Positions 1,891-30,974 of a DNA stretch of 64,000 nt are shown piece by piece (position 1 is the first letter of the stretch; each line of letters opens with the position of its first letter). Source of the stretch: Marsupella aquatica (Eukaryota; Plantae; Marchantiophyta). The DNA lies in assembly GCA_973895155.1 (NCBI GenBank), contig OZ316891.1, forward strand, positions 5,303,708 to 5,367,707, written 5' to 3'. The notes under the pieces are model-generated. The model was given only the letters and a program-made list of their open reading frames with translations, was not told where the DNA came from and did not search any database. The translations under genes and the position numbers were made by a program.

Positions 1891-2099
1891 TGTTGTAAAA
1901 CACTTGCTCGTAAATCACTTAGGAGATTAAGCTTTTCTCTTAGCTTAACCTGCGCCTCCATTCTTACTTCCGGCCGCTCTCTTCCCTACTGTCGATCCTA
2001 GGTTACTACCTTCCCTCCGTTGATTCCCCTCTCCCTAAATCCTACTTATAGTGAGTCCTGCGCTCAGTCCTACGTAGCAATAGATTAGTGTTACCAACA
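1891..2099 (+). repeat. Copia 5' LTR (209 bp)
   Basis: TGTTGTAAAA...TTACCAACA; differs from the 3' LTR by 3 transitions. Confidence 0.98.
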
Positions 2100-2112
2100 T
2101 GGTATCAGAGCC
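2100..2112 (+). promoter_or_regulatory. Primer-binding site (tRNA-iMet)
   Basis: TGGTATCAGAGCC directly after the 5' LTR. Confidence 0.95.
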
Positions 2113-3756
2113 ATGCTCTGATTAGCGTCCGCAGGTATCATGCGTGTTCAGGTAGAAAGTTCCCTGACACTTAGTACCAGCAGCACTAGATTCTAGATTT
2201 ACTCGGAGCGTACTCAGGTTGAAAGTTCCCTGACTAACACGAGCACTGCTTAGAACATTCCTTGCTTGATTAGAGCAACTACTGACATTCATAAGATTAG
2301 ATTCGACTCAATCAACTCATTGCTTTGCTCAGGTTTGAAAGGTTCCCTGACACATCACTATTCTGCATTTCTTACCATTCTTCTCATTAGTGAATCAATA
2401 GTTTCTTTTTGCCATGGAACTACTGAGGATATTCTCCGACACCGATAAGCTAGATGGCACCAGTAACCACATGGCCTGGACCATTGTGGTTAAGAATCTT
2501 CTGAAAAAGGAAGACGTGTTTCATGAACTCAACTTCAACGCCAAGCCTGACGCCAACGGCAAGTACTTCATAGATGGCGGAGCCCATCTGACCGCCAAGG
2601 AGAAACAGAAGAAGAAGGACAAAGCTGTCGCCATTCTTGCATCTATAGTGAAGTTCAAATTTCTGTCCACAGTGGACAAGTTCTCCAACGATCCACCCAA
2701 GTGTTGGGAGCATTTTCATCAACGCTTTGGTGGAGATCTACTACAATGCCAGATGTTCCTGATGCAGAAGCTTCAGACTACACACATGGTCGAGGGGAGC
2801 TCTGTGGAACTCTACATCAACCGGATCAACGAGTTGGCCGGACAGCTTTCCAGCATCAACGCCGAAGTAGACGAAACGCGTCTCATGCATATCGTACTAC
2901 AAGGCCTTTCGCTCAGCTGGAATGCATTTGTTTCTATTTTCAGTGCTGATCTCTCTCGTACTCCTAAACCAAATTTTTCTAACCTTCTTGAACGTTTGCA
3001 ATCTGATGAATAATGGAGGAAGGCCAAACAGGCTCAGGCTGAGTCTCACGAAGAAGCTATGGCTGTTACACGTTCATTCACTCGCAGCCGGGGATGACCT
3101 TTTCATCGCCCCGATTCTTATCCACCTTGCAACAACTTCCGCAACACTCCGCCTCAATCTCAATCTCGGCCCAATCCAGCTCTCTCAGTTGGACGTGGGC
3201 GGCGAATCGGCACCTGCAACTACTGTGGAAAGACCGGTCACTGGGAACCAGAATGTGATCTAAAGAAACTAGATTCTCAAATCGCTGATCTTCAACTCAA
3301 AGCTGCTGGGATACGCAGGTACCAACCTCAAGCCAACAGTGTTGAGACCCCTCCTAACTACTACGATGGACCTGAGGACACCACAGAAGTCTACAACGAC
3401 AATGAGCATAATGACAATGAGCACGGTGAGTACTTTGAAGCAAACTACTCTGAGCTTGACACAACTAGCCATAGTCCTAGTGAGTGGATACTCGACTCCG
3501 GCGCAAGCACTCACGTTACAAGAGACAGTTCTGTCTTCCGCACTATCAACGCCGGCTCTCACTCCGAATCAGTGACTACTGCTAGCGGTACTCAGCTGCC
3601 TATAGCTGGACATGGTACCATTTCTATTGATCGCAATAAAGAGATCAACAAAGTTTTGTACGTGCCTGGTCTTCAACGGAATCTTCTCGCCATTGGGTTC
3701 CTCACCGACGCAGGCCATCTCATTCTTTTCAATTCAAAATCCTGCTTTGTTTTTGA

Positions 3757-4052
3757 CTCGGGGGTTTCACTTCCACAAAAATGGCATATCACGTGCGACG
3801 AAGGATAGGGTCATTTTATTGGTTCTAAGGGAAGACTTAAGAATTTTTGTAGAAGAACAATAGGGTCTTTTAAATTCAATTTTGAGACTTATAAGAACAT
3901 TAGGGTCTTTTTAATCCAATTTTTAGAATATTCCAAGAATATTCCAACTTTATAGGGGTTAAAAAATAATTTTTTTTCTTACATTTTAGGGGGTCCGAGG
4001 CCTAAAAACGTCGCAGGCGATGGGGAGGTCCCCATATAGTGAGACCCCCGAG
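3757..4052 (+). mobile_element. 296-bp MITE copy 1 (8-bp TSD, hAT-like)
   Basis: TIRs CTCGGGGGTTTCACT and AGTGAGACCCCCGAG; TSD GTTTTTGA at 3749-3756 and 4053-4060; excision restores CFVFDKDNP. Confidence 0.93.
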
Positions 4053-4976
4053 GTTTTTGACAAGGACAACCCGTCTAACATCTTCCTTAGAGGAGCTCGT
4101 GATCCTCGCAACCGCCTCTACAAACTGCGTCAACCACTGCCGCTTGTTCCTTCACACTCATTTCATCCCGACTTACTTCAGCAATCCCCTATTTTCACTA
4201 GTACATTTTCGGCCCTTTTTCCGATCCTAACAACATCGGACCCCTTCAGAAATTTTGACGCAGAAAAATGACCCGTCCGATGTGATTTACTTCGCACTTT
4301 CCCATACTTCACCCATCGGATATCGACAATCGGACATCCATCAGAATTTCCGTTTCTGATACAATCGGTACATCCGTTACTGAATGTTTCGGATAATTTG
4401 TGTCCGATTCTAATTTCATCGGATACTATAGGCCCACCAAAAGGTAATATCAAGGGTCCGATGTATTTTATATGGGATAGTCCGATGTAAAACATATCGG
4501 AGTTTGCGTAGCAATATGTATCGGGACATCCGTAGTGGTGTGTAACGCAAATTGCGATGCTGAAAATATCGGACATTTGGGAGGAGGGGTCCGAAATAGT
4601 TTACTTCAGAAGTTCTGTAGCGTATGGTATCAGATATGAGCTGGGTCACCGGCTTGACTAATAATGGATATTTAGGGTTTGTGGGGGTTTAATATTGGAT
4701 TCATGGGAATCATTTGGGGGTTTAGGTTTAGGGTTCAGGCTGAGATTGACAAAATAGGGTCCAAAGAGCATGCTGAAAGCAAGGTAGTGGTTGAATTAAA
4801 TATCAGGTTTTCACAATGGGGAACACCCCAATATGTACAAAATGAAATGGGCCTAGGTAGGCAGTAGAGCCATATGGCCGGTGACGGCTACATGAAACAC
4901 CAAAATGAGGCTCTAACTGGCCTACACTATGTGGTACCTCTAATCAAAGCTATCAGACACTATGTACCACAAACCT

Positions 4977-7457
4977 CTAAAAAGGTGTGTTGCGTCCCTT
5001 CTTCTTCTTTGGGCGAGAGCGTGGGCGGGGTACAGGTTCGGGAGCGCGAGACCCCTCATGTTGGTGGCTGCCCACAACCGTGGTAGCCACCTGCTCAGCG
5101 GATGGCGTGGGTTGGCCTGATGCAGGTCTAGACCCTGAACCACTAGATGCACCACTACGGTGCTCAGGCAAGACAGATGTCCCACCACCCCCCGACACAG
5201 CAGAGTGGAAGGAGCCCTCTCCGGTAGACCTACGCGAGTGATGGGATGCTCCACCTGCATGTGTTGTCTCTGGCCCGTGCCGTGCTGTACTCCCACCAGA
5301 CTCACGAGATGGCGCTCGCCCCCTAGAACCACCATCCTGTATGTCACTAGTCCCTCGTCGTGGAGGGCCAGCTGGTGCACTATGTACCCCGGACCGATGG
5401 CCTGGTCCCACACGACCTCTACTACCCCCTGACGGCCCGGGCCTACCACCCCGTGATGCTGCTGAATGATGGGAGCCCACACCATCAGCATCATGTGAAC
5501 CAGCACCCTCTGCTGATGTGGGGGCAACATGAGGGATAGGGGTAATCGTGGCCACTCTCGCCGACCCTGCCGCATCCTCTGCATCCTCATCACCTGCATT
5601 CTCATCACCAGCATCCTCATCGCCAGCATCCTCATCACCACCGTCCTCATCACCTGCATCCTCATCACCTGCCCCACCTGACTCCTCATCCGATCCTGAC
5701 TCCTCCTCCTATGCAATACATAGCTAGGATTAAATTGTTGTTAAATTAGTTTATATAGGGCCTCCAAAACTCTAACAAATTCACCATAACCAAAAACATT
5801 TTCATAACCTAGGGGGAACACAAACCTCTCCCAACTCATCCTCAAGGTGGCGCTTAAGAGCGCGGGGTCCATTCCTCTTTGCCAAATCCCTCTCGGATGG
5901 CCCAATAGGTCTACCCCACTCCCTTTCCTGGCAGTTCACAGTCCCAAACAAAATATCCCATTAGCATGAAACCAAGCAATCTTGGACCCCATAATGCACA
6001 CCCTACATACCCCTCATTAAAACTGTTATCATAGTAAACCCTAATTTAAAATAGGACCCCTGCCACATACCCATACAAATCCTATACCCTATATATAAAC
6101 CCCTAATCAAACTAGTTCTCAAATTTAACCCTAATTTAAAAAACTCCACAAAGTGCTACTCAATCATGAAACCCCTAAAACCTAATACCAAAGTTAAACA
6201 GTTATTGCTATAAGCCCCCTAAAAATGCCACAAAACCTGATAATTAAGCTTTCCACGAGGGGTCCGATTCTCCATCCGATTGTCTTAGCATCGGAACTGC
6301 CTCGGAACGTTAGTGCCAAAAAATGAATAACAAGAGGTCCGATGCCGGGTCCGATGCAGAAAGAATCGGACACCTATCGGAAAGCACAGGGCCAAGAGCA
6401 AATTACACCATCGGGCCGCAAAGGGTTTAAAGCATTTGGAGGCTGAAAAATGGTCACTCTTCACAACAGAAGGTCAGGTGGTCGGGGGGAGGAGCTAGGG
6501 AGGAGGGAGAGGGGACTTACAAATTCGGCCTTCAGTCGATTGGAGCCGCCTTGCCCCATCCGGTGAGTGACCACAGGTCGACCTTGCACTCGCTACAAAG
6601 CTGCTATGATGTCCTTTGGTGGCTTGGGGAGTCTTACCTCTTGTGCATGCCACTGTCGTAGCATCTGTTGGAGGGGGAGGATGTCAATTTCCTCTCCAGC
6701 TTTCCTCTTCTCCTCTGCCAGGCTGATTTCGAGATTGTAGTGACGTTTTTGCAGCCAGGCTCGGACTGCTAGTTCCTCCTCAAGCCAAGCTGCCCACTCA
6801 TCTGAGGAAAGCGCATCTGGACAGCCCTGCTCCCTAACCACCTCTGCATCCATCGGCATCTCAGCAAGGTAGTTCCTGAATTTCTCTCTTTGATGGTTTC
6901 GCATGTCTGAGAGTGAGGCGGATATCCTCTTGTTCAAGAACCTATCATCAATGTGTGCCCCGTTCTTGAATCGTTCTTTCACTTGCTCTTGAATTCTGGA
7001 TTTCTCTTCCTCCTTCTTCTTGCCCCAGTAATCTAATGGCCCCAAATTGGCCCGCACCACTTGTTTGAATTGGCTGCGAAAGAGATTGTAGCCCCTGGGT
7101 AATGGAGAGCCACTCTCTGCTTCCTTTTGCTTGAGCTCCTCTACTCGCCCCTTCTCAGCTTCCCTAGCCTCCCTCCGAAGCTTCTTCTCTCGTTTTCGAG
7201 GAGAGAGAGACTCCTCTGCATCTGCCCTGCTTCTCTTTGCCTCCTTCTTCTTCTTTGCAGCTGCAATGGCTGCTACAGCAGCTTTCTCAGCCTCAATCTT
7301 TGAGGCATCGATCAAACAAGGTCTGCAAAAGCGGGACTACTCTAGCTGCATCCTCCACACTCAACCCGGCCCTAGCAACAAAAATCTCCTTCATCACCTC
7401 ATCGTATGCCCGAGAAGGTCCAGCCCCATCCCCACCACCAGATTCGCATCCCACCAT
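4977..7457 (-). pseudogene. CACTA accessory ORF2 (TnpA/Ptta-like), exons ~7457-6521, 5927-5826, 5708-4977
   Basis: Phase-0 GT/AG junctions join AEF|EREWGRP and LGE|EEESGSDE; Lys/Glu-rich helical N-region, HRMGQGG motif, GDEDA acidic repeats, C-terminal NLS-like PKKKKGR; 4-bp frameshift at ~7316 and TAG at 6593-6595. Family assignment is inference. Confidence 0.6.
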
Positions 7458-10120
7458 CTCCCCTCCTCCTTTGAGCTCCCCTCCCAGCCTCGACAATAGC
7501 CTAAGTGTCAAGTGCGAAGCTTGTCCCGACTCGCGGGTCTTCGCACCAGCGTCGGGACTTCTTTTTTGAAATCTGGCCTGTTGCGTCCGATGCAAATTGC
7601 TTCGGACTTTCCGAAGCCGAGAACATCGGTATTGGTATCGGACCTTCCGATATGTTTGACATCGGACCCCTCATTGTTAATGGGTTGCCTTGTTTTTGCC
7701 AAGGTTTGTTCGTTTCTTATAGTATCGGACCCCTCGTAGAATTCTTTCGGATGCACCTTTTCTTTCCCAAATTAAGGGGGTGTGATGTGTTTAGTTAAAT
7801 GGGTTGAATTGGGTATGGATTCTAGAGTTTTGGGGTTTTTTGAATTTGGGTTGGGTATGGTTGTGTTAACATTTTCTTTCCATTTAAATTGACAGGTTTT
7901 TTGATGTAGGGTGATACATACCTCACTGGGAGGGTGACCGTGACGTGCATGTGACTCTTGTGCATACTAGTTCCTTCTTCACGGATACAATTTTTGGGTT
8001 TGTTCTTGATTTTCATTTTTTGGGGGATAATTTTACTCTGGTTGTGCATACCTAATATGTTAGGCTATAATGATGCAATTCTTATATAGTCTTGCTTGAG
8101 ACATTGGTTTAGGGTTTTTATGAGGATAGTGTTGTACATTTTCTTATGATAACATGAAGCCATTGTTAGGCTAATGTTTGTGTTTGGATATGATGTGCAG
8201 TACCTTGATTTTGGCATGGAGGGGTAGGTTAATTAGTTTTTTTGAGGGGGGTTGGTAGTCTTTTTTGATAATGCACTATGCATAGCGTGAGACCGCGCAT
8301 CCAAGAGGTATGATGTTTCTTGGCCCATCCATGTATTCTCCTCAGGTTGTAACATAGAGGTTTACTTTGGCAAGTTTGACACATCGTTTGCCGAGGTGTG
8401 CATGTCGTGCACTTTTTTCACTTAGCTCACTATTGAAATGCCCACCTTGCAGAGACTTTGGATATCCCACACTTTGTGTGTCGAGAATATAGCCCAATAG
8501 GCACAGCAAAGCGCGGGTATCATTGAGGTACATAGGGCAATGTCTCTCTATGTAAATCTCCTTAATTATGTTTGTATATACATCGACACAAGAAGTTGTT
8601 TAATCTAACTTACATGTTGGATATGTATGTAGATGTCTACATCCGATAGTTCCACATCGGATTCAGACTCTGACACGAGCTTGTCCGAGGGGGAGGTTCC
8701 TCCACCCCCTCCTCTTGATCGTCCTCGTGCTCCACTAGGGCCCATACCTTGCTGGTGTGTGAGATGCAAGGGACTTGTGGTTCGACATGCCTGGGAGACT
8801 TGTGAGCACATTGAGAACTATGGTCGCCATGAGGGTGATATGCCAGGTTATTTGCCTAGCCAGGTAAATAATTATACATACATCCCCCCTTTCATTTCAT
8901 GAAACGGCAATTGGTGAAATATTGTATATAATTAGCTTGCATTCAAATAACACTACTTAATTTATTGTGTGTTGAAATAGGTGCCTCGTAGACCCCCACC
9001 TCCTTTGGTTGATGATGCTGTGTGGCTAGAAGGGTTTCTAGCAAGAGCAAGGGACTTGCTTGCATCCCCCCTTGCCCATCCACCTCTTAGCCCCCCTGCT
9101 CCTATCCCCATAGTCGAGCATGTAGAGGGTGAACCGGTCTCTCGACCGGAGGTTGGGTGTACAAGAGTCCTACGTACACGACCACGGTCTCGTAGACGTA
9201 GACGGCAATATGAGCCACTGGAACAGGTAGACAACAGGGAAGAGGTGTTAGGCAGTGCCCGACCATCCAACAACGTAGATTATATTGGGGTTGATGGACG
9301 GTTTGGAGCATCTTATCTCAGTGGTAGGGCAGCCGACATTTTGAAAGACTTTGATCCTAGTCTCTTCAAATTGCCAGACTACATTCCTATTAATGAACCG
9401 GTTGAGATATGGGGTCACTCTTGGATAGTGAAAGATTCCTCCATTGGTGCTGATATAGGATATGGTCTATATGCTTTGGAGGACATTATTGTCCCTCCAA
9501 AGCCATGGAGACGTGGCTATGATGGAGAGCACCTTTTCCCTTACATTGGAGCTATATACAACGCTAAGAGTTGGAACATTTTGTTGCGTCAACACCCAAG
9601 TTGGGGGGTGTACGCATTAAGGATGGACTCAGACCTAGACGAGGTCTTCACTAGGCCGTGGCATTGTAGGATGATTGATGGTGACCCTGTTCGGAATTGT
9701 AATTTAGCAGGGTACATCAATAGTACCACGGGTAGAGGTAGAGATTTGGAGGCTAATGTAGAGTGGATCCAGATGTTTGGTCCACCTAGCACTAGTACAT
9801 ATTAAGCTGATTTCCGATGCTCAATTTTTGCGAACAATCGGCGTCCGATTCTTTTAGCATCGGAAATTCCGATTATCAAAAAATGGCAATATGCCATACT
9901 CTCAGCTTCGGATATCTTCATTTCCGATATAATTGACAACGAAACCTTTCCGATGCGTTAAAAAACGGATCATATCCGTTAGAAAACACATCGGATCCCT
10001 CAATAGAAACTTTGATTGATATGTCCGATGTTTTTTGTAACGAAAATGATGTGCGTTACAATATTGATCGAAAACTTTCCGTAGTTAATAATAACGGATA
10101 TTATATCCGATTGTGCTAAC

Positions 10121-10300
10121 ATGGCAAAGTCCGATGTTGGGAGAATGGGAAAGTCCGATGCTAGGAGTATGGGAAAGTCCGATGCTAGAAGAATGGGAAA
10201 GTCCGATGCTGGAAGAATGGGAAAGTCTGATGCTGGGAGTATGGGAAAGTCCGATGCTAGAAGAATGGGAAAGTCCGATGCTGGGAGTATGGGAAAGTCT
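10121..10300 (+). repeat. 24-bp tandem array, ~7.5 units (ATGGGAAAGTCCGATGCT.G.AG.)
   Basis: Direct reading; each unit contains or approximates the subterminal TCCGAT core. Confidence 0.9.
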
Positions 10301-11140
10301 GGTTATGACAAAAAGAAATTTTTTGATTGTGTTAGAATGAAAAGTTTTGATGTGTTAGATGGGGTATGTGGTTGCACCGACATACTCTTCCCAAAAGATG
10401 CAATCATTCTTGCATGCATGAATAACTTCATACTTGAGGCAAATGGACTTGAGTGTTGTTTTTGCCTCATTCCAAGACATATTGTTCCCTTACGGAAATA
10501 TGTGCTCAACATGCCAAGTCCAAAATACATCATCTAGAAGGAGGTTGCTTGTCCCATGTAGTCTTTGTTGCAAGTCCAACAACAACATAGTTGATAAAAG
10601 ATGAGACAATCAGGAGCCATTGACGCTGAGGCTTTGGAAGGACCAAAATATCATCCATAACTAATAAGCCATAATTATCCCATATCAAATCTAATGAACG
10701 AGGGCTTTACTATCGATGAATGACCCCTGCCAGATTTCTATTGGTTTCTCCTAGGGGAATGTAATAGGGTAACTAGAATAGGTCACTTGATGCAAAGATC
10801 TAATCTCATGATAGAGAAAAATGGATCAAGAATGGGTCCAAATTATGGGTCTTAGTAAACTCACAAGTGTATAAAATCCCCAAACACTCTAAGTCAAACA
10901 ACAAAAGTGCTAAGCTTGCATGTACAATGTAAGGAATAAGAACCACAAAGTTAAGCTCATGTTGGAGGAATAGCAATTGGGATGGGTGACCAATTAGTTG
11001 AGAAAATTTGAAGAGTTCACATGTCAAGGGAGATGGGCACCTAGCTCATAGTTCCAAATGAAAGTAGAAACCCAATTAAAGGAAGAGATGGGTGACCTGA
11101 GCATGTCGCGTCCGCTGAAATGCATATCCCATTTTGATTG

Positions 11141-11298
11141 CTTCGGACTTTCCCATTCTCTCACCATCGGACTTTCCCATTCTCCTAGCATCGGACTTTC
11201 CCATTCTCTCACCATCGGACTTTCCCATTCTCCTAGCATCGGACTTTCCCATTCTCCCACCATCGGACTTTCCCATTCTCCCACCATCGGACTTTCCG
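11141..11298 (-). repeat. Inverted counterpart of the 24-bp array, ~6.5 units
   Basis: Repeated CATCGGACTTTCCCATTCTC, the reverse complement of the 10121-10300 unit. Confidence 0.9.
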
Positions 11299-11704
11299 AT
11301 AGAAGTCCGATTGTCGATATCCGATACTATTAAAATGGCATGTTGCGATGCTAGTAGTATCAGATATATGGTTTTTCAAATTTTATTTTACAAAGGCGTC
11401 CGATGTGGAGAGAATCGGAAAAAGGAGGTAAAATGTACTAGTGTAGAGCTCCATATTTTGTGAAACATATGGATGATCACATCATGACGGTCGCTGTTAG
11501 GACCATTAGAGCTGGTGAGGAGTTATTGTGTGATTATGAGTGGGATGCACCAAAATTGTCCCTACGTTCCCGTCCAAGATAGTTTCTTGGACTTACATAT
11601 ATACATATATATATATCGGATTCTTTTCCATTTTTAACATTGGATAATTGGTTGTTCACAATATTGATGTTGATGAGATTGCATGCATTGATGTTGTATG
11701 ATAG

Positions 11705-14700
11705 AATCAATATGTGGTGCCTGATATTGGGGTAATATCACGAGCTATGCGGCAACACCTTGTTGAGGCCATGGTGGCGAATGATGGGGAGGAGAATGAG
11801 GTACAACATGAGGATGATGACTCTACCCAAGATCGGCTTGAAGATGAGGAGGCCATGGATGAGCTCATGAACCAATTTTATGAAGATGATGCTGATATTG
11901 GTATGGAGGAGATGGGTTTCACCGATGACAACACCACTCATCCTTCTAGGGGGGGCCAGCAGAAGGAATGGGAAGAGGCTCAACGTCATGCTCGTACTCG
12001 CATATTTGAGGGGAGTAGGTTATCTCGGCTCTCAGCAATAATGTTATTGTTGAATGTGCAACAAAGACATGGAGCCAGCAACCTACTTTTGGATGATGTT
12101 TTTCGTACCCTACATGATCGCATTTTACCACCAGGCAACAACATGCCAAGGTCTTGGAAGGAGGCTAAACAGGTGTTGAAGTCCATTGGTCTAAAGTATG
12201 AAGTGATACATGCATGTGTAAATGACTGCATTCTTTTTAGGGGTGAGCATGAAAATGCAATCATATGTCCTGAGTGTGAGAAGCCGCGGTACCGTGATGA
12301 CATGTTGATAGGGAAGGTGCCTCAAAAAGTTATGCGGTATTTTCCTCTCATCCCTCGATTGCGAAATCAATACCGTTGTGCAGAGTTGGCTGAGTATATG
12401 GTATGGCACTCACAACATCGTTCTGATATGGGTACAGACTCCAGTGCCATGCGAATGATGGTTGACTCTCCTGCCAATCGATTTGTAGAGGATAGATGGG
12501 GTGAGTTCAAAACTGACCCACGACATGTGAGACTTGGATTGGCAGCAGATGGTATTAGCCCTTTTGCATTGGCAGGTAAAGCAAAACCATATTCAGTATG
12601 GCCAGTAGTTCTAACAAACTACAATATCCCTCCATGGATGGCCATGAAGAAAGGTCATCTACTACTCTCAATGATCATCCCGGGTCCTAAGCAAGTAAAA
12701 AAGATTGACATCTACTTGCAACCTTTGATTGATGAGCTTTTGCAACTTTGGAGGGGAGTGGATTGTTATGACGGACGTCGCAACACTGGAGGTTTATCTC
12801 GCGCATTCACCCTCAAGGCCATTCTTATGTGGACCATGCATGATTTACCAGGTAATCACAATAAACCTTGCAATTAATTTAACCCTATTTCATCAATCTT
12901 GCACTTAATTAAAAATTGTATTTTTTTCTCTAACCTTCTTTCATTGGCTGGCTGTCCCTTGACCAATCATAGGGTTTGGATATATCTCTGGATTGCAAAC
13001 ATCAGGCTATCAAGCTTGCCCTTCATGTGGACCAGATTTGGAGGGAGTGGCAAGACGCAAGTCAACTACTTTGCGGAAGATAGTTTACATTGGTCATACT
13101 AAATATCTTCCAGCAGACCATCCTTGGAGGAGTGACCACTTCCTGTATGACACTGATGAGGGCCAACCTGATACCCGTCCTCAACCTCAGCGAAAGGATC
13201 CAGCATATTGGAGAGAGGTATGGCAAAGAGTTCAAAACCCAGATGATCCATTACAATTTCTCAGATGTGGGATGACCCGTTTGTCTGCATTATCACAGTT
13301 GCCATATTGGTCAGAGATGCCCATTAATCACTTGTTAGATCCGATGCACATTGAGGGGAATGTGGGGAGGTCATTGATTCGTCATCTATATGGGGAGAAG
13401 AACCACAATTGGAGAGAAAGTTGTGAGGAGATGGGGATGCATGGTCTTCTTGGTTTTTGGCCATCTTTGGACCCCCCTGGAGACCCCCCTAGCATCCATC
13501 CACCTTGGGTTTTGACTAGGGCAGAGCGCACTGAGTTTCGCAGACGTATTGGGTCAATGAGGTTTCCCATAGGTTATGGCGCAAATCTCCAAAAAGCATT
13601 TGGGGGGGATGATTCTCCAAAATGGCCATCTTACTTGAAAACACATGATTATCATCGGTTACTAGAACATGTCATTCCAGTTGCGATTATTGGATTGGGT
13701 AGTGAGGAACTTCGTGATGCCCTTTGGTCATTGGGAAAGCTTTTGAGATGGGTATGTCAGAAGGAGGTACAGGAGGATGAAACTGCTGCAATGGAGATAT
13801 TTGGAGTAGAGGTTATTTGTAAGTTGGAGAAGGCACTCCCTCCCTCTTTCTTTGATGGCCAGGTTCATTTTCTCATACATTTAGTGCATGAGGTTGCAAT
13901 TGCAGGCCCAGTGCATTGTCGATGGATGTATTGGGTTGAGCGTTATATGGGGGTGATGAAGTCGTACGTCTCTAATCGCGCTAGGGTGGAAGGTAGCATT
14001 GCAGAGCGTCATCTTGGAGCAGAGAGTATGTTTTATTGTACAAACATAGTTGCCACACTAGATCCTAATTAACGCTCCTAGGGGATGGATACATGAGGCA
14101 GCGCGAGAGGCGGACTATGAGGATGATAGACTCACTGGGGCATCAGGAGAGCGTCTCTTGAGCTCAGCGGAGCGTTTGCAGCTCACAACATTTATGTTGT
14201 ATAATTCACCAGAGGTTGTAGGGGAGTGGACAACATTTTATGAGGAGGAGAAGAAAAATAGTCGGCGACCATGATTATTTCCCAAGTTTCACCCATACAT
14301 GAAGTCAAAGATGCTAGAAGTGGATGCCTTGGTGGGTATTGGGGAGAGCATATCACACTTCCCAAAGGTGACTGATAAGCTTCATACCTTGATTCATGGT
14401 CCACTACTTATAGTCACGACTCGGACAGCCATGTGGTCCAAGGGAAGACATTTTCGTGTTGAACGACTTGATGAGAAGAGGGCAGCTACACAAGATTGTG
14501 GGGTGATGGGTTGGTTCACCCAGGATTCACAGAGTAGCACATTAGACAGGAATCCCATTCGGTCCACCGTCGCCCATTATGGAAAGATTGAGGAAATCCT
14601 TACCATAAAGTACCATGCACATACTACTTTGGAGGAAGTGGTATTAAAGTGCAAATGGTTCAAGATGAATCTTATGGGCCACAACCGGACATGTGAAGAT

Positions 14701-14937
14701 GATGCATGCGGTTTTACCCGGTTGAAGACAACCGCAAATAGTGTCATCAGCTCAAACTGGAGGTCCTCAGATCCCTTTGCGTTCCCCCATCACCTTGAAC
14801 AATGTTTTTACCTACCCTATCCAGATGACTCAGATTGGTCCATTGTCATGCCATACATTCCACGATCACGATCCATCGTCCAGGATAGACCTAATATAGT
14901 TATAGTGGAAGATACTGACATTCCCTCCACTAGTTAG
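11705..14937 (+). pseudogene. CACTA TnpD/Tnp2-like transposase (Transposase_21, DUF4218, DUF4216 regions)
   Basis: IHACVNDCILF, RHVRLGLAADG, YSVWPV..YNIPPW, HDLPG|FGYISG..ACPSC (intron 12852-12972), LDPMHIEGN, FFDGQVHFLIHL..GPVHCRWMY, YGKIEEI..LKCKWF; 4-bp insertion at ~14069 and TGA at 14272. Confidence 0.95.
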
Positions 14938-17106
14938 ATATCTAGTACATCAAAGGCGTAGCTAACCCCTACCATCTTATTTGTGGCTATTTTATTGGCA
15001 TTACATATTTATCGGCATTTCATGTGTTCTCACACTCTACCATTGCATAAACTATATTGCTACAAGTATCCAGGATCAAACCATGACCACAATACAATGT
15101 CCCATTGTCAATCCCATGGAATCTACATCGCACAGGCATCGGTACTCGGCCGGAGAACTAAACCTCTTTCCGATATTGAAAGTGACGGGACACATGCGAT
15201 TCAAAACCTATCGGACACATTTTTCCGTTCCAGAAACCATCGGACCCCTCGGCAAAAATGATGAAGGAGGGGTCCGATATGCTTACCTTCGGACAACTTC
15301 CGATACTGTAACTATCGCACGTAGGTTCCAAAGCAATGTCTTTCCCAATATTATGTCCATTGGTTTAAATATCGGACAATGTCCGTTTGTTTTTCCAACG
15401 AGCCTCAGGTCCGAGTGTAATTGCATCGGAAGCTAAAGCCTTACTTTTGTCGTCTTTTTGAGATGCTATTAATTTCGGACATTGTTCGATAGTTCTGGTA
15501 TGGGATAGTTTTTGCGAAGCATTTTCCATCGGTACGTTTATTTCCGATATATCATGAATCGGAAATTACGATGGTTTTAATATCGGAAGTTGTCCGATGC
15601 GTTCGGTTTCGGACGGCTAAAAGAAGCCGCGATTTGAGTATCGGAAAGAGACCAAAAATGTACTAGTGTTTGCTCACAGAAGTCTCTCACACCGACCCTG
15701 TCGACCTGTGGCATCGTCGCCTCAATCACGTGAACTACCAGATGGTACATCACATGTCCACGGGGTCCTTAGTCACTGGGATACCACCCCTTCCTCGGGT
15801 AAAACGGGTTTGCGACACCTGTGTTCTAGGCAAACACCATCGGGACAAAGCTCCCAAATATTCTTGCTCTCGATCTTCTCGACCTCTGGAACTCATTCAC
15901 TCCAACCTTTGCGGACCAGTTCATGGGCCCGGTCCCACCAAGTATATTCTCACTCTTATCGATGATTTTTCACGCTTTACTTGGGTTTACTTCCTCGCTT
16001 ACAAAAGTGATACGTTCGCAAAATTCAAGGACTTCAAGATTCTTGTTGAAAACCAATTCAACCACAAAGTTGGTTGTCTTCACTCAGATCGCGGTGGGGA
16101 ATACATGTCCGCAGAATTTCTATCTTTTTGCAGGCTCCACGACATTCGATGTCAACTCACCGTAGCTGACTCTCCACACCAAAATGGCATTGCAGAACGC
16201 AAAAACCGCACCCTACTTGAAGCTGCCCGGATCATACTAATTGATTCTGGTTTCCACTGTCTCTCTGGACTGAAAGTATCCGTGCAGCTAATTACGTCCA
16301 AAATCGATCCGGCACACGCGCCCTTCATCAGACTACTCCATTTCAGGCTCTACATGGCTCCAAGCCCGACCTCAGCCACCTCCGTGTTCTTGGTTCAACT
16401 GCATACGTTCTTATACCGGCCTCTCATCAGACCAAGCTCGGCATCAAAGCCATCCGCACCACCCTTCTCGGCTATGACGATCAATCTAAGGCCTATCGCT
16501 GTTTTGATGCTACACGCCAACGCATTCTCATCTCCAAAGATGTTACATTCGACGAGAATACCATGGGCATTCACGTCACCAATCCTATTGCCGCTCAACT
16601 ACTATTCCAATCTCTCCTCACTGATGATATTCCTACAGCTTCGCTTGCTCCAGCAATTCTTGCTCCAGAGGGGGAACCAGTGCCCGATCAAGCACTTGAT
16701 CAGGAGCCTCCAGTTCTAGAAGAGGAGCCTATCTGCGAACCTCTGGAACCAGTATGTGAACGAATTGCGCCTGAGCCACTTGTTATTAATCCTGTCCCAA
16801 CAACACCTCAACCAGCGCTACGACACTCCCTTCGGACCCGACAACCACCACCTTGGCACAACGACTACGAAATGAGCAGCAATCTCATCGAGGCCACTGG
16901 ATCTGAATGTGGAAATCTATCTGTCAAAGAGGCTCTCAAACACCCAAGATGGAAGAAGGCCATGGAAGATGAAATCAAATCTCTCCTCGACATGGGCACC
17001 TGGGAGCTAGTCTACCTCCCTGCTGGACTACGCGCCCTCACAGCAAAATGGGTCTTTCGTGTCAAGCCCAACTCAACCAGATTTCGACTGAAAGCTAGGT
17101 TCGTTG

Positions 17107-17402
17107 CTCGGGGGTCTCACTATATGGGGACCTCCCATCACCTGCGACGTTTTTAGGCCTTGGACCCCCTAAAATGTAAGAATTTTTTAATATTTTTTAA
17201 CCCCTATAAAGTTAGAATATTCTTGGAATATTCCAAAAATTGGATTAAAAAGGCCCTAATGTTATTATAAGTCTCAAAATTGAATTTAAAAGACCCTATT
17301 GTTCTTCTACAAAAATTCTTAAGTCTTCCCTTACAACCAATAAAATGACCCTATCATTCGTCGCACTTGATATGCCATTTTTGTGGAAGTGAAACCCCCA
17401 AG
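17107..17402 (-). mobile_element. 296-bp MITE copy 2, inverted relative to copy 1
   Basis: Near-identical reverse complement of 3757-4052; TSD GTTCGTTG at 17099-17106 and 17403-17410; excision restores KARFVARGF. Confidence 0.93.
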
Positions 17403-18836
17403 GTTCGTTGCACGTGGTTTTGAACAAAAGTTTGGCATCGACTACAATGAAACCTTCGCCCCTGTAGTCAAATGGTCCACTCTGCGTGCTGTCATCGCCC
17501 TTGCCATAGCCAATGGATGGGAGCTACACCATATGGACGTCATCACTGCCTTCCTCAACGGTACCCTCACAGAAGAACTCTACATGCAACAACCTCAAGG
17601 TTTTGAGACTCTTGGAAAGGAAACAATGGTCTGCCACCTACGACGATCACTCTACGGTCTCAAACAATCTCCCCGGGCCTGGTACAGTGAAATCGACTCT
17701 CACCTTCGAGAAACTGGATGGACCCGTAGCACTGCAGATCCAAATCTCTACTTCTATCACTCAGATGGGGCGCTTCTTATTCTCATGCTCTATGTTGACA
17801 ATCTCCTCATCACCGGCAGCGATTCTGACAAAATTGCTGACATCAAATCCCATCTCCAACACAAGTACCAAATGAAGGACCTCGGCTTGGCCCAAAAATA
17901 TCTTGGCATTGAGTTCCTCCAAACACCTACTGGCCTCATTTTAAACCAAGCTACCTACTGCCAGGAGCTCATCAACAAATTTGCCATCACCACATCAACG
18001 TCAATTCCTCTCCCTGAAGGCCACATCCTCACAACTGATACTTACACCCCGCCATTTGACACAAGTGCTTATTGCCATGCTGTTAGCAAACTTATTTTTT
18101 TAACTCATACTTGACCTGTCATCTCCTACGCCGTCGGCATCGTCAGCCGTTACATGAGCGCTCCACAACAACGACACTAGGATTCTGTTCAAAACATTCT
18201 CAAGTACCTACACGGCACTTATGACTATGGGATTACCTTTGTCAATACATCTACGACCTCCCTTCAAGGATTCACCGACGCTGATTTTCTTGGATGCCCG
18301 GAAATTCGTCGCTCCCGTGGTGCTTACCTGATTCAACTGGCAAACGGTCCCATCTCATGGTCCAACAAGCTTCAAAGTACCATCTCTGACAGCACCACTG
18401 AGGCAGAATACAAGGCACTTTCCGAAGGGGCTAAGGAAGCTGTCCATATTTGCAGACTACTTGCCGAACTTGATCCTCACTCCAAACTTACCGTTCCTCT
18501 CACTTCTTCAAACTCATCCATTCATCACAATCTCTCTCATGCACATATTCCTACCTCTGCTGACATCCACTTACACTGTGACAACCAGGGATCTATCAAG
18601 CTCGCCAACAATCCCGTTTTTCATGCACGCACCAAGCACATCGAAGACAAACACCATTTCATCCACAAAAGGGTGCTAGAGGGGGAAATCTCATTATCTT
18701 ACATCAACACAAACAAAAATCCCGCCGACATCTTCACCAAGCCTCTCTCAAAACTCAAGTTTGAGAAACATCGCGCCTTTATTGGAGTGAAATCTATTTC
18801 AGGAGCACAGAAACACTCCTGAAATACACCTTCCTT

Positions 18837-19463
18837 CTACATTCCATATTTTGACAAGAAATACTCTGCCTCCCGCAATGTACAAAAACTCTGATGACAA
18901 TTCCCTGAATAACCATTGACCTCCTTACTTGCTTCTGCCCAATTTAGGTAGATTCCTGGCCTACGCCCGGCTGCCACTGCATAATAACGACGTCTATACA
19001 GCATCGGCATTCTATCAGCCTGATCTTCTTGGGAGACCTGAGCTTCAGAGGGGGCACTCGGCCCATACACTTCAGCTCTCCTCAACGACACTAACATTCG
19101 GCTCTCCTGCTGCTCACCAATCCGCACCTGAGGATCCCTCCTCTCCTCCTCTATCTTCGGCATTCTGACCAGCTCATCGACATCCTGCAAACGAGTCCAT
19201 CGGGAGACTCCCCTACATCCCCTTGACAGCAATTGCAGCAATCGCACCACTACTTTCAAAACACCACATATACTCACCACTAGCACATGACGGAATGACA
19301 TTCTCGCCTTTTCTTCCTCTCTCTTCTCCTCAGTTATTTTGTGGACATCACCGTCCTCCTTTCTCTCCTCAAAAAACTTACTTGAGAGGGGGTGTTGTAA
19401 AACACTTGCTTGTAAGTCACTTAGGAGATTAAGCTTTTCTCTTAGCTTAACCTGCACCTCCAT
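18837..19463 (-). CDS. Antisense accessory ORF of the Copia with C-terminal RNase H1 N-terminal hybrid-binding / caulimovirus viroplasmin (Cauli_VI) domain
   Basis: YYAVAAGRRPGIYLNWAEASKEVNGYSGNCHQSFCTLREAEYFL fits the YAVxxGrxpGiYxxWxxxxxxVxgyxgxxxxxFxtxxEAxxf consensus; uninterrupted; start may be ATG 19463 (in the LTR) or ATG 19301. Confidence 0.85.
   Translation of the reverse strand: MEVQVKLREKLNLLSDLQASVLQHPLSSKFFEERKEDGDVHKITEEKREEEKARMSFRHVLVVSICGVLKVVVRLLQLLSRGCRGVSRWTRLQDVDELVRMPKIEEERRDPQVRIGEQQESRMLVSLRRAEVYGPSAPSEAQVSQEDQADRMPMLYRRRYYAVAAGRRPGIYLNWAEASKEVNGYSGNCHQSFCTLREAEYFLSKYGM
19384..19392 (+). promoter_or_regulatory. Polypurine tract
   Basis: GAGAGGGGG abutting the 3' LTR. 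Confidence 0.9.
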
Positions 19464-19601
19464 TCTTACTTCCGGCCGCTCTCTTCCCTACTGTCGATCC
19501 TAGGTTACTACCTTCCCTCCGTTGATTCCCCTCTCCCTAAATCCTACTTATAGTGAGTCCTGCGCTCAGTCCTACGTAGCAATAGATTAGTGTTACCAAC
19601 A
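19393..19601 (+). repeat. Copia 3' LTR (209 bp)
   Basis: Matches 1891-2099 with 3 transitions; followed by TSD TTTAA. Confidence 0.98.
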
Positions 19602-19606
19602 TTTAA

Positions 19607-22518: not shown

Positions 22519-23960
22519 AGATCGAATAGAGTGGTGCAAAGGACTTCTATGTAGGAAAAGCAGCAAACTAGACGAAACAAAACTCAAATGCTCGAATTGA
22601 ATGAACAGCCTTCTTTAAAGTTTATTCCCAGATTTCGTGGACAGGCATACATGTCAGTATGTATACAATTCAATTGGCTGTTTCCAATGTCATACATTTA
22701 GTTAGCCATTCTTAATTGCCCTACAGATATACTCAACGTTTTGGACCTTGACAGTCCAATTAATCCAGGCTAGGATCGTTTGGGATGCGCGCCTCCTCTG
22801 ATTTCTTTGAGACGTCCTCATATGCATGCTTAATCTCCTAACACGTATGTATATCAAAGACTTCCTATTCGTGCTCGATCTGGGAGATGCATCTACCACA
22901 GCCATCCACCTGTGAATTGAGGCCAGGTGTTAAATCACTCTTCAGATTCGGAAGGTTTTTTGCATATTTCCGAGCCTTTTCTGAAGGCTAAACGGGATCC
23001 AGTTTCTCTTCCTGGGAATCCTCCAACAATCTGCGTCACATGAAAGAATACACATAGAAAATTATGTTTAGACTAAAATCTTAATATGTATGCAGTCAAG
23101 ACTGTCCGCGTCAGAATTCTATGACTTCTAAAAACTGGAGGTCTAAATTTAATATGAAACAAATGACAGCTACATGTTGTTCTAGCAAAGTCATCCCAGC
23201 CTGAGATTGGGGAAAGAAAATAGCACAAATTAACATACAGCTATCGATCGATCGGATCAACGAAAATGAATAAAACTAATAAACACAAACAGTAAGTAAC
23301 AGAAAGGCAATCAAAGCATCGATAGAGGTCTTGAACTAAAGGGAGGCAACAAATAAAGTAGACAGCTCAGCTGAAGGTTGTCGAAATTAATATCAGCAAC
23401 CAGCACAGGAAGTGGAGGTTTCAGTTACAACGTAAAGCCTCACCGAGACAGTTTGGACAGGTTTTTGCACTGCACACTCTCTGGAAGAACAAGATAGCTG
23501 CTTTGCTAGAAACTTCGCAGCCTTCTTCATATCATAATTCCTCAATTCATCCCGAGGGACCAACTGCAGAACTTGGGCGAACTCATCGTCCTCGAGTGCA
23601 TCTTCAACAAAATTATCCTCAACCTGTTCTCTCTTGCAACTTTTAGGCAAAATGCGTAAGTTTATTTCATTGTCTCCCGCATCTCCCGCATCGACTGCCC
23701 GCCTGCCATCCATAACTTTCCCTGCACTTTCTCTGGATACCTCGGTCAAACTATGTAAGGAGTCAGCACAAAGTTCGGAAAACCCTCTCTTTAGTATCAG
23801 AAACTCCTGAAAGAAGCTAAGCCGCTACTACGCTACTTAAGATCTATCGTCTCGATCGCCCCCTAAAGTTCCTACCACGCAGTCCGAAGCAGATGGTATT
23901 TTGCCTTCGATGACATGAGCGACAGGAAGACGTGAGGCACTCTTCTCGGAAGAACTTTCA
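22519..23960. repeat. Right arm of the inverted duplication, free of insertions
   Basis: Contains the empty Copia site (single TTAAA at 22930-22934) and the empty MITE site. Confidence 0.9.
23393..23713 (-). CDS. Small acidic hypothetical protein (possibly spliced at GTGAGG to an exon beginning near 23030)
   Basis: MDGRRAVDAG..EDALEDDEFAQVLQLVPRDELRNYD; conserved with 798-1043; no family recognised. Confidence 0.45.
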   Translation of the reverse strand: MDGRRAVDAGDAGDNEINLRILPKSCKREQVEDNFVEDALEDDEFAQVLQLVPRDELRNYDMKKAAKFLAKQLSCSSRECAVQKPVQTVSVRLYVVTETSTSCAGC

Positions 23961-24151
23961 GAGATCGAGAGAGATAATGAACCTTTCACTGCCAAGATAG
24001 CCATATATAGTCAGGCCTGAGGGTAAGAAACCTTATACCTGGATGTACGTATGAGGGGGGAGCAGCCGGCCGGGAGAAGAAGACCAGATGCGGGAACGCC
24101 TAGTGATCGGCCAATGCCAGGTAGGTGGGATCAGCAGAATCGGACATGCAG

Positions 24152-27291: not shown

Positions 27292-27765
27292 ATGGCGGCA
27301 GCTACGTTGGTTTATATTGAGATGGGACTGGTCGCGGTGGGGCTCGTAGGGATGGCTTTATGGTTGCTGGTTTTATTTTCGGCTCTGTTGAGAAATCTGT
27401 TGACAAAATGGTGCTGTCCACATCTACACGGAGCTCGTCCTACAGAATCTGGTCTCACAGATCTGAGTAGGCTACATTTCAATGAGATTCTCCGCGAAGC
27501 TGCCGCTGCAAGAGATCAGAACCCATCATATTTGCACGAGGTTTCCAGGGAAGCGCCAGCCGCACGTCCGAATAGGGTGAGTTTCGACACAGCTCTCCCC
27601 GAAGAGGCTGTTCCCGTGGATATCAACGAACGACATTTGCCAGAAGCTACTTTCGCACATTCGCGTCCTGAGGAGCGTTCTTTTGCGGCTCTGGAAATGG
27701 ACCCCCAACAAGAAATTCAAGTGGAGCCTGTTGTTGAAGGTTCGAGCGGAAATAAAAGACGTTAA
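27292..27765 (+). CDS. Hypothetical single-pass membrane protein, 157 aa (copy A)
   Basis: N-terminal hydrophobic helix, then WCC and an acidic/Pro-rich tail; frame preserved in the inverted paralog 30488-30974 with in-frame indels. Confidence 0.6.
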   Translation: MAAATLVYIEMGLVAVGLVGMALWLLVLFSALLRNLLTKWCCPHLHGARPTESGLTDLSRLHFNEILREAAAARDQNPSYLHEVSREAPAARPNRVSFDTALPEEAVPVDINERHLPEATFAHSRPEERSFAALEMDPQQEIQVEPVVEGSSGNKRR

Positions 27766-28317
27766 TTAAGGACGTTGAGCCTCATGGAGAGCATCTATTC
27801 TTGAGGAGTTGGCTTCAAGTCACGTGCTTTGGCGAGAAGGGACTATTAGTGTACTCGATTCTCCCTCCATATTCGATCTCTTTGAAGCAGTGGCTAAAAG
27901 CACTCAACTGCAGGAAAGTAGTGCTATCACCAGTGGTATTAATCAGCCTTGTGGGAGCATGGAATTCGGATCAATGTTAGCTGTGCTTTGTCCCTGTTAG
28001 TCTGGCTTGCTCATATGATTTCTGTTCAAGCCATAGTTTAGGGAAGATTTTCGGTTATGAAAAGGTTCTTAGCTTTGTCTAAATCAGCTTCGATGCATGT
28101 AGGAATGTGGTAGGACTAAGTACATGTGGTAGCAGTGGCAGATGTTCAAGGACAATCCACAAATAATCTGTTTGACCAGGTCTTCTTAATCAGCACAAGA
28201 ATAAAAAAAGCCCAGTTAACTTTATGCTAGCTTCATTTTATGAGTGAGGCACACTTGCAAATATTGCAGCCCGACTCTCACCTTTGTCGAGTTAATTTCA
28301 TTGAATTTTGAACCCTG

Positions 28318-29120
28318 CTGGAAATGGACCCCGGGCAAGAAATACAAGTTGAGCCTGAGATAGAAGTTGAGCCTGAAATTCAAGTTGAGCCTGTTCATGA
28401 ACGTTCGAGCGGAAATAAAAGACGTTAAGGACGTTGAGCCTCATGGAGAGCATCTATTCTTGAAGAGTTGGCTTCAAGTCACGTGTTTTGGCGGGAAGGG
28501 ACTGTTAGTGTACTCGATTCTCCCTCCATATTCGATCTCTTTGAGGCAGTGGATAAACGCACTCAACAGAAAAGTAGTGCTATCGCCAGTGGTATTAATC
28601 AGCCTTAACTGTGGGAGCATGGAATTCGGATCAATGTTAGCTGTGCTTTGTCCCTGTTAGTCTGGCTTGCTCATATGATTTCTGTTCAAGCCATAGTTTA
28701 GGGAAGATTTTCGGTTATGAAAAGGTTCTTAGCTTTGTCTAAATCAGCTTCGATGCATGTGCGGAATGTGGTAGGACAGTTAAGTACATGTGGTAGCAGT
28801 GGCAGAAGTTCAAGGACAATCCACAAATAATCTGTTTGACCTGGTCTTCTTAGTCCGCACAAGAATAAAAAAGCTCAGTTAACATGATGCTTCATTTTAT
28901 GAGTGAGGCACACTTGCAAATATTGCAGCCCCCTCTCACCTTTGTCGAGTTAATTTCATTTAATTTTGAACCCTACTTTGGTCTCTTCTTGGATGGTGCA
29001 CCTGCAGCTGCAAAGACGGGCCGGCTGGAATTCCGACGGTGTATACATCGATTGAGGCACCATATCCTGATGACGGGGACAGTGTAAAACATCGAGCAAG
29101 AATGTTTTAGGGTAATCAGA
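28318..29120 (+). repeat. Partial tandem copy B (3' end of the ORF plus downstream region)
   Basis: Restarts at ctggaaatggacccc and repeats 27691-28316; near-perfect inverted match to 29761-30598. Confidence 0.9.
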
Positions 29121-29143
29121 CAATCACCTATGGTAGCAACTAT

Positions 29144-29163
29144 AGTGTGTGTGTGTGTGTGTG
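29144..29163. repeat. (GT)n microsatellite
   Basis: gtgtgtgtgtgtgtgtgtgt read directly. Confidence 0.85.
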
Positions 29164-29760
29164 TTGTGCAATGTGGAAGTACTGCAAGTACATTCTGGTT
29201 TCCAGTCTAGAAAGAAACCAAATAGCAAAGGCTCAAAGCACAACAAGATCTTTAATTCTCTCTTCTTCGGTTCGACCTGGGCAAAATAATCGGGAAAAGA
29301 ATACTTTGAATCTCTTTGAATGGGTTCTCGGTTGAAGCTAGTGTCGCTTCTTTTCGTTGAACGGTACAGGCATGAAAAGCAAGTACCAGTTACATGAATG
29401 TGCATGAGCCTTTTTCCCCGGATCCGGCAGATAATTTCAGTGTGAGGCTACTTACTGAAGTTAGGCTTCACTGTATATCTGTGATTCTTGAGAAAACAAA
29501 TACACCTAAAACACAAACATCCAAGGCGCCACAAACAAGTTGAATGAAGACAACTGCGTCTGCTTCCCACAATGCGTTTTCAATAGAGGATTGTCATGAA
29601 TGAACTATGTACTTACTCAAAGGGATCATCATTTGGACCTACAAGTTCAAAGTTAAGCAGTAAAGATCAATGGACGGCTAGTGCGCGCTTGACTTAAACG
29701 GACCACACAAACGACGGACTGAAATGAATTGTTTGTGTTCGCGAATCCAAGTGCTTCTCG

Positions 29761-30974
29761 TCTGATTCCCGTAAAACATTCTTGCTCGATGTTTTACATT
29801 GTCCCCGTCATCAGGATATGGTGCCTCGATCTACATAAAGATTTATGGTCAAGAAACCTTAAGTTTAGATGTACAAACCCGGAATTTGCCAGATGCAGGC
29901 CGGTGCACCATCCAAGAAGAGACCAAAGACGCAAGTAGGGTTCAAAATTAAATGAAATCAACTCGACAAAGGTGAGAGGCGGGCTGCAATATTTGCAAGT
30001 GTGCCTCACTCATAAAATGCAGCATCAAGTTCACTGGGCCTTTTTATTCTTCGATCTGCTGACTAAGAAGACCTGGTCAAACAGATTATTTGTGGATTGT
30101 CCTTGAACTTCTCCCACGTACCGCTACCACATGTACTTAGTCCTACAACATTCCGCACATGCATCGAAGCTGATTTAGACAAAGCTAAGAACCTTTCCAT
30201 AACCGAAAATCTTCCCTCAACTCTGGCTTGAACAGAAATCATATGAGCAAGCCAGACTAGCGGGGACAAAGCACAGCTAAAATTGATCCGAATTCCATGC
30301 TCCCACAGTTAAGGCTGATTAATACCACTGGCGATAGCACTACTTTTCTGTTGAGTGCGTTTAGCCACTGCCTCAAAGAGATCGAATATGGAGGGAGAAT
30401 CGAGTACACTAACAGTCCCTTCCGCCAAAGCACGTGACTTGAAGCCAACTCTTCAAGAATAGATGCTCTCCATGAGGCTCAATGTCCTTAACGTCTTTTA
30501 TTTCCGCTCGAACGTTCATGAACAGGCTCAGTTTGAATTTCAGGCTCAACTTCTATCTCAGGCTCAACTTGTATTTCTTGCCGGGGGTCCATTTCCAGAG
30601 CCACAAAAGAACGCTTCTCAGGACGCGAATGTGCGAAAGTAGCTTCTGGCAAATGTCGTTCGTTGATATCCACGGGAACAGCCTCTTCGGGGAGAGCTGT
30701 GTCGGAACTCACCCTATTCGGACGTGCGGCTGGCGCTTCCCTGGAAACCTCGTGCAAATATGATGGGTTCTGATCTCTAGCCGCTGCAGCTTCACGGAAA
30801 ATTTCACGGAAATGTAGCCTATTCAGACCTGTGAGACCAGATTCTTTAGGACGAGCTCCGTGTAGATGTGAATTGCACCATTTTCTCAACGGAGCCGAAT
30901 ATAAAACCAGCAACAGTAAAGCCATCACTACCACCCCCACCACGACCAGTCCCATCTCAATGTAAACCAACGTA
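29761..30974 (-). repeat. Inverted copy C of the 27.3-29.1 kb unit
   Basis: Reverse complement of copy B and of the copy A coding region; ~640-bp spacer 29121-29760. Confidence 0.92.
30488..30974 (-). pseudogene. Paralog of 27292-27765 lacking its start (MAAA) owing to a CACTA insertion
   Basis: Similarity to copy A stops at aaaccaacgta|CACTAC (30975). Confidence 0.7.

Follow-up and report, generated by a model that had tools for sequence, protein, structure and literature searches.

SET domains have been described on several kinds of transposon. The accessory gene PAG2 of the red-algal Plavaka (EnSpm/CACTA superfamily) carries one (PF00856; 10.1101/2025.02.11.637652), SET genes are reported in the HarbingerS and MuDR families of Phytophthora (PMC12730594), and Helentrons bear a SET domain resembling that of Clr4, for which an E-value of 3e-24 against the SET model is quoted (PMC4067079). 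An action on chromatin has been proposed for PAG2, and the accessible accounts of the oomycete and red-algal genes give no tested function. A second kind of precedent is offered by En/Spm (TnpA-TnpD) and Arabidopsis Spm3, in which alternative splicing yields a transposase and an anti-silencing regulator (10.64898/2026.08.24.746577, PMC13547354). The plant transposon anti-silencers VANC and TnpA are DNA-binding proteins, and one paper on such anti-silencers singles out VANDAL elements as the sole known case of transposons that modify their own sequence; all of these accounts are taken from the accessible portions of the sources. Here we analyze a stretch of 64,000 nucleotides from the liverwort Marsupella aquatica (GenBank assembly GCA_973895155.1, contig OZ316891.1, forward-strand positions 5,303,708 to 5,367,707; hereafter the window, whose own numbering is used throughout), in which a CACTA element harbors a gene of predicted SET fold.

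SET cargo is thus already published, the EnSpm superfamily included, and the first-pass annotation of the window overrated its novelty in DNA transposons. What is new is the apparent position of a SET exon behind the transposase's zinc-finger first exon in a liverwort CACTA. The element resembles PAG2 as a SET-bearing DNA transposon of the EnSpm superfamily with a proposed role in chromatin. However, PAG2 is a separate accessory gene that joins SET and an adenine DNA methylase (PF01555) in one fusion, whereas the liverwort element has a plant TNP2-type transposase with the SET exon behind its first exon and is set apart by the description given of PAG2; no PF01555 was found in the window pieces, in the relatives P0003-P0005 or in 34 further family members. 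HarbingerS, MuDR and the Helentrons are alike in their transposon-borne SET but belong to other superfamilies and hosts, and the Helentron SET is Clr4-like, whereas the family described here is divergent, with an INS motif and no post-SET cysteines. TnpA of En/Spm binds DNA, and its coding sequence accompanies or follows that of the transposase, whereas the alternative product of the liverwort element would be an enzyme fold housed in the first intron, with the zinc-finger exon shared. In SETMAR/Metnase the SET domain likewise adjoins a transposase, but that protein is a domesticated host SET-mariner fusion, whereas the liverwort element is mobile and its SET exon terminal. No paper on a SET-bearing bryophyte CACTA was found, with Repbase entries, subscription journals and bioRxiv supplements outside the search, and the accessible portion of PMC11982613 holds nothing on the subject. 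The family is small, intact members exist in sequenced liverworts and Marchantia is the genetic model of the group, which makes self-marking by a transposon directly testable; the family may also bear on the unusual marks of bryophyte transposons, such as trimethylated lysine 27 of histone H3 (H3K27me3). Caution is due with some Riccia gene models labeled 'SET domain', which are parts of transposons.

The SET gene and the transposase's first exon

The only reading frame visible in the SET region is a truncated one of 274 residues (stop to stop, 8981-9805), and the gene is hidden, as the first-pass annotation proposed, by a nested insertion: removal of the insert together with one TAG, and of a predicted intron at 8864-8980, restores 391 residues to the first stop. 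This intron is the sole GT-AG pair within the range tested, and the Calypogeia gene model P0003 splices at the same residue. The 45-residue piece on the 3' side of the insert matches PF00856 (E-value of 2e-4, 22.1 bits, gathering score 22.4) and the 269-residue piece on the 5' side has no Pfam match alone. Scored with a profile of 41 relatives from which the window was excluded, the joined protein forms one domain at 293 bits and the interrupted form reaches 234 bits. The join is confirmed by the relatives, since the spacer at the junction is 17 residues long in the window and in all 13 hand-picked close intact relatives, and since the profile recovers a single domain. Its 5' part runs from a low-complexity linker through a basic RxRPRxRRRR stretch and a family-specific pre-SET region to the motifs GxG, FPYxG, DGDP and NLAGYINS and to N292. 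The four SET motifs follow one another in the order first reported; the His of RFINH is indeed replaced, with Ser at that position in 72 of 73 family members, and the absence of a post-SET Cys cluster is borne out across the family (0/52 have a CxC in the 30 residues that follow the final Tyr).

The exon preceding the SET exon carries a CxCxxC...H motif that resembles the transposase-associated domain PF13963, and the same exon lies upstream of SET in loci L001, L002 and L003; it was not seen in the short locus L004. The L002 and L003 versions match PF13963 at E-values of 1e-4 and 7e-4, below gathering, while those of the window and L001 give no match. With a profile of 91 transposase N-termini, the window exon attains 11.3 bits, more than any of 500 shuffled sequences (best shuffle 10.7). 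A CxCxxC motif is found within the first 200 residues of 91 of the 117 other CACTA transposases, and in P0120, from a sister branch, it occurs in a single frame with the transposase. Exon 1 thus seems to be the transposase's own N-terminal zinc-finger motif, which the first-pass annotation overlooked.

Between the stop of the SET exon and the transposase, two further features that the first-pass annotation overlooked, lies an AT-rich spacer of intron-like composition that ends in the sole YAG of 11590-11800, and the transposase frame opens directly after it in phase 0; in the window the donor of exon 1, the SET acceptor and the transposase acceptor all share this phase. None of four loci (window, L001, L002, L003) has an in-frame GT donor in the stretch from the final Tyr to the stop. 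The simplest reading of this layout is that a SET exon was inserted into the transposase gene's first intron, where it serves as an alternative terminal exon, and two splice products, zinc finger-SET and zinc finger-transposase, are probable.

The transposase is identified by Transposase_21 (E-value of 2e-40), DUF4218 (6e-30) and DUF4216 (1e-6). In the outer CACTA it has a frameshift near 14069 and a stop at 14272-14274 and, with the SET exon interrupted as well, this copy is inactive, a point that the first-pass annotation did not make. The frameshift coincides with a TAA-T-TAA at 14062-14072, which looks like the excision footprint of another CACTA (a 3-bp duplication plus one base). The SET part is present in two of 120 long transposase relatives, both from Riccia, and in none of the named flowering-plant ones. 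In a transposase tree of 49 of the 123 rows (11 chosen and every third of the remainder), the five SET-linked rows group with one further row, from Riccia, in a branch (92/83, unstarred) nested in a 100/100 branch of eight rows. Of 100 family proteins, seven have gene models that run on into CACTA transposase sequence. By sequence comparison, the SET exon is a standing component of one CACTA lineage. The outer CACTA keeps its introns and sits in a Copia element with near-identical long terminal repeats (LTRs), from which we infer that it inserted after the Copia and that the family has moved recently on an evolutionary scale.

Fold and family of the SET domain

Intact relatives match PF00856 above its gathering score (P0003, 34.1 bits; P0005, 30.0 bits). 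The structure was modeled on P0003 of Calypogeia fissa, which is 70% identical to the window protein over the searched region, rather than on the joined protein itself. The AlphaFold2 model has a mean predicted local distance difference test score (pLDDT) of 76, with 148 residues above 90, and Foldseek matches it to SET8, MLL1, LegAS4 and G9a (E-values from 5.5e-7). In fold comparison, Set1, PRC2 (Z 11.1), SET8 and SET7/9 (Z 10.7) fall between Z 10.7 and 11.4, or between 10.1 and 11.4 with LegAS4 and PRDM3 included, the match reaching Z 11.4 with a root-mean-square deviation of 2.7 over 126 aligned residues. Judged by this model of an intact relative, the reconstructed gene is a SET-fold gene. 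The added claim that the His is replaced as in PR-type domains finds no specific support: the Z of 10.1 for PRDM3 differs from those of the top rows by approximately 1 at most, and no PRDM is among the best 60 sequence matches shown.

A PDB search with the single P0003 sequence gave nothing below an E-value of 0.07, while the best PDB sequence match of the family is LegAS4 (9e-4). LegAS4 likewise lacks the His (RYINFS) and, according to the accessible part of PMC10653858, is a methyltransferase of histone H3 lysine 14; the missing His is thus no proof of a dead enzyme. The accessible part of PMC3980110 gives ELxFDY and RFINH as SET-domain motifs. The family has an ELxFDY-type motif, in which E328 is kept in 57 of 58 members and the final Tyr, Y333, in 54 of 56, but lacks both the His of RFINHxC and the post-SET cysteines of canonical histone lysine methyltransferases (SUV39/SET1/SET2). 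With minimal SET enzymes (SET8/KMT5A, LegAS4/RomA, MLL/Set1, EZH2) it shares the fold, GxG, YxG, the Asn and the final Tyr. However, identity to them is only 16-28%, with no clear nearest family, and the family has a pre-SET region of its own (approximately residues 130-185 of P0003).

The family search, against 1.84 billion representatives, returned 79 matches (clusters at 50% identity), 52 of them below 1e-10. P0066, a repeat protein, was a false match and was dropped, and P0001, P0002 and P0006 were excluded from the tallies. Median identity among 52 complete domains is 40%, and yet G193 (83/87), G195 (83/86), Y226 (80/81), D266 (75/76), N280 (67/73, with Q in 6) and N292 (70/70) are conserved, and the FPYxG and DG motifs are also nearly fixed. 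Across five DNA pairs among the window, L001, L002 and L003, differences at four-fold third positions affect 54-80% of conserved codons and those at second positions 32-37%, with synonymous sites close to saturation, a pattern that indicates that the SET gene is under purifying selection.

All members with an organism name come from the liverworts Calypogeia fissa or Riccia sorocarpa, and the 79 matches include no ordinary host SET. A SET tree was built with FastTree from 61 of 101 rows (more than 70% coverage) and rooted at the midpoint, with support values not displayed. We note that P0074 and P0104 of Calypogeia fissa are divergent SET members that begin with another Cys/His-rich N-terminus and for which no link to a transposase was observed; they may represent another carrier or a domesticated copy. 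As to a donor of the SET exon, scans dependent on short exact patterns, which carry little weight as evidence, found no relative among 42 candidate stretches in viral contigs; in prokaryote genomes 4 of 43 candidates passed tblastn but scored at background on the family profile, the best with an E-value of 0.06 for a million sequences. A viral fold library returned generic SET matches only, at 23% identity or less.

Proposed function and its alternatives

We propose that in intact elements exon 1 would be either joined to the SET exon or, with that exon skipped, to the transposase. The resulting zinc finger-SET protein, a predicted lysine methyltransferase, would act on histones at the element's own copies, and the marks set there would prevent silencing. 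It would be targeted by the shared zinc finger, via partnering with the transposase or via the subterminal repeats, together with the basic RxRPRxRRRR stretch, which could be a nuclear signal or a nucleosome anchor. S-adenosylmethionine-dependent activity of this protein is likely. In 54 of 56 members a non-aromatic residue stands two positions before the final Tyr; under the Phe/Tyr-switch rule a non-aromatic residue there permits di- and trimethylation, and the enzyme would accordingly be one that adds more than one methyl group. A histone substrate with a self-protecting effect is a tentative suggestion, in our estimate slightly short of an even chance, and the anti-silencing direction is favored by analogy with VANC and TnpA. 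Taken as a whole, the proposal of a SET exon in the transposase gene, alternative splicing and a self-marking anti-silencing methyltransferase is one that we hold with moderate confidence. Its boldest form is somewhat unlikely: an old bryophyte CACTA lineage would encode a histone methyltransferase of its own that alternates with the transposase by splicing, the transposase's zinc finger would be the address and the splice choice would set chromatin writing against jumping, which would give land-plant transposons their first anti-silencer of enzymatic nature.

Several points weigh against this proposal. The zinc-finger match of exon 1 is weak and under the Pfam cut-off, and both junctions of that exon rest on prediction from sequence. 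With an ATG of its own at 11747, the transposase frame could be a separate gene, an arrangement seen in several Arabidopsis Spm families according to the accessible part of PMC13547354. In L002 the phase-0 acceptor is one of eight YAGs in the scanned range and was selected by frame, and the downstream exon there matches the transposase at an E-value of only 0.09. The neighborhood is established for seven of the 100 family proteins, and a divergent branch (P0047, P0049, P0056, P0074, P0079, P0080, P0097, P0101) shows no transposase link. Pfam matches SET in only 23 of the 34 further members at an E-value of 0.05. Enzymes acting on H3K4, H3K27, H4K20 and H3K14 tie in fold, and neither the substrate nor the direction of the effect can consequently be predicted. 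Some SET proteins are inactive, as stated in the accessible part of PMC12886896.

The same sequence evidence would also serve a self-restraining enzyme, one that represses the element through the mark it sets there, or whose target is the transposase or some other protein than a histone, with the splice choice acting as a brake on transposition. PRC2 and SET7/9 are both tied for best fold match, and H3K27me3 covers many Marchantia transposons (10.1101/2022.10.24.513474), but the reported transposon-borne chromatin factors VANC and TnpA are anti-silencers in the accessible accounts, and we regard self-restraint as unlikely. Another explanation is that the SET fold has no catalytic role and serves as a reader or decoy, binding histone tails or host silencing factors and, for example, tethering the transpososome or steering insertion. 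The family-wide change of NH to NS, the lack of post-SET cysteines and a Phe at position 221 in 21 of 83 members are consistent with such a role. However, the cofactor and catalytic positions (GxG, Asn280, final Tyr) have been kept at approximately 40% median identity and LegAS4 is active without the His, so that a non-catalytic role appears quite improbable. The gene models P0075, P0076, P0077 and P0119 connect SET sequence to transposase, as would be expected of a single SETMAR-like fusion protein, but they exit the SET exon at varying points, P0075, P0077 and P0119 miss the end of the domain, and the stop after SET together with the lack of an in-frame donor at the four loci makes a fusion very improbable. 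Passive Pack-CACTA capture of a decaying host SET gene, in keeping with which this copy is dead and an insertion was tolerated in its SET exon, is scarcely credible and largely refuted, since the family is deep, under purifying selection, an established component of one CACTA lineage and free of ordinary host SET matches, and since the exon layout is common to L001-L003 at approximately 35% identity; the gene is no one-off decaying host fragment, the outcome that the first-pass annotation had named as a refutation.

Anatomy of the nested locus

The locus is nested in three layers, a Copia LTR element containing the outer CACTA, which in turn contains the inner one (Table 1). The Copia has a TTTAA target duplication, and its two LTRs, of 210 nt each, differ at 3 sites. 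Both CACTA elements have the terminal inverted repeats (TIRs) with CACTA start and the 3-bp duplication that place them in this group; both ends of the outer element are CACTAGTACATTTT, flanked by TTT at 4193-4195 and 15669-15671, and the TAG copies of the inner element lie at 9787-9789 and 11444-11446. Subterminal TCCGA/TCGGA motifs are clustered, with 11 in 4001-4500, 10 in 15001-15500 and 6 in 15501-16000; the corresponding figure outside is 0.57 per 500 nt.

Table 1. Features of the nested CACTA locus in window coordinates
Feature	Coordinates	Strand	Remarks
Exon 1	8633..8863	+	Ser/Asp-rich start, CxCxxC...H motif from 8750, phase-0 donor
Intron 1 (predicted)	8864..8980	+	GT-AG, 72% AT
SET exon, 5' part	8981..9789	+	linker, basic stretch, pre-SET region, SET motifs
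SET exon, 3' part	11447..11582	+	GEELxxxY, final Tyr 11535-11537, stop 11580-11582
AT-rich spacer, 122 nt	11583..11704	+	72% AT, 44% T; predicted second acceptor for exon 1
TnpD/TNP2-type transposase	11705..14937	+	Transposase_21, DUF4218, DUF4216; intron 12852-12972
Copia LTR retrotransposon, host of the CACTA insertion	1891..19602	+	LTRs 1891-2100, 19393-19602
Outer CACTA (En/Spm) element, 11.5 kb	4196..15668	+	perfect 14-bp TIRs starting CACTAGTACAT
Inner non-autonomous CACTA, 1654 bp	9790..11443	-	CACTAGTACAT termini, TAG duplication
Left-arm open frame, 247 aa, Lys/Glu-rich	6596..7336	-	between internal TCCGA clusters

The inner CACTA has 24-bp subterminal repeats and, at approximately 10328-10567 on the minus strand, a transposase remnant with 70% nucleotide identity to the outer transposase over 224 nt. 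An open reading frame of 138 aa within it (10121-10537) consists of its 24-bp subterminal repeat, has no Pfam match and is probably not a gene.

The left arm of the outer CACTA contains, besides the Lys/Glu-rich frame, a second minus-strand frame at 4977-5708 (243 aa, low complexity, with a basic cluster at its end), and both (4977-7336) are divergently oriented with respect to the transposase unit and match no known family. The two could possibly be one spliced second gene, and a TnpA role for the Lys/Glu-rich frame, which has no Pfam match and no match among 124 long proteins, is a guess. Internal TCCGA/TCGGA clusters lie around that frame at 6001-6500 and 7501-8000, with 8 motifs each per 500 nt, and are possibly binding sites of an element-encoded regulator.

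Within the Copia, a 212-nt inverted pair (3757-3968 and 17191-17402, 96% complementary) flanks the outer CACTA. Longer inverted arms at 530-1842 and 22803-23982 (80-92%) surround the Copia and perhaps belong to a foldback or MuDR-like element that received the Copia insertion. Further downstream, at 27292-30974, a small open reading frame (approximately 155 aa, with a hydrophobic N-terminus) is duplicated both in inverted orientation and in tandem.

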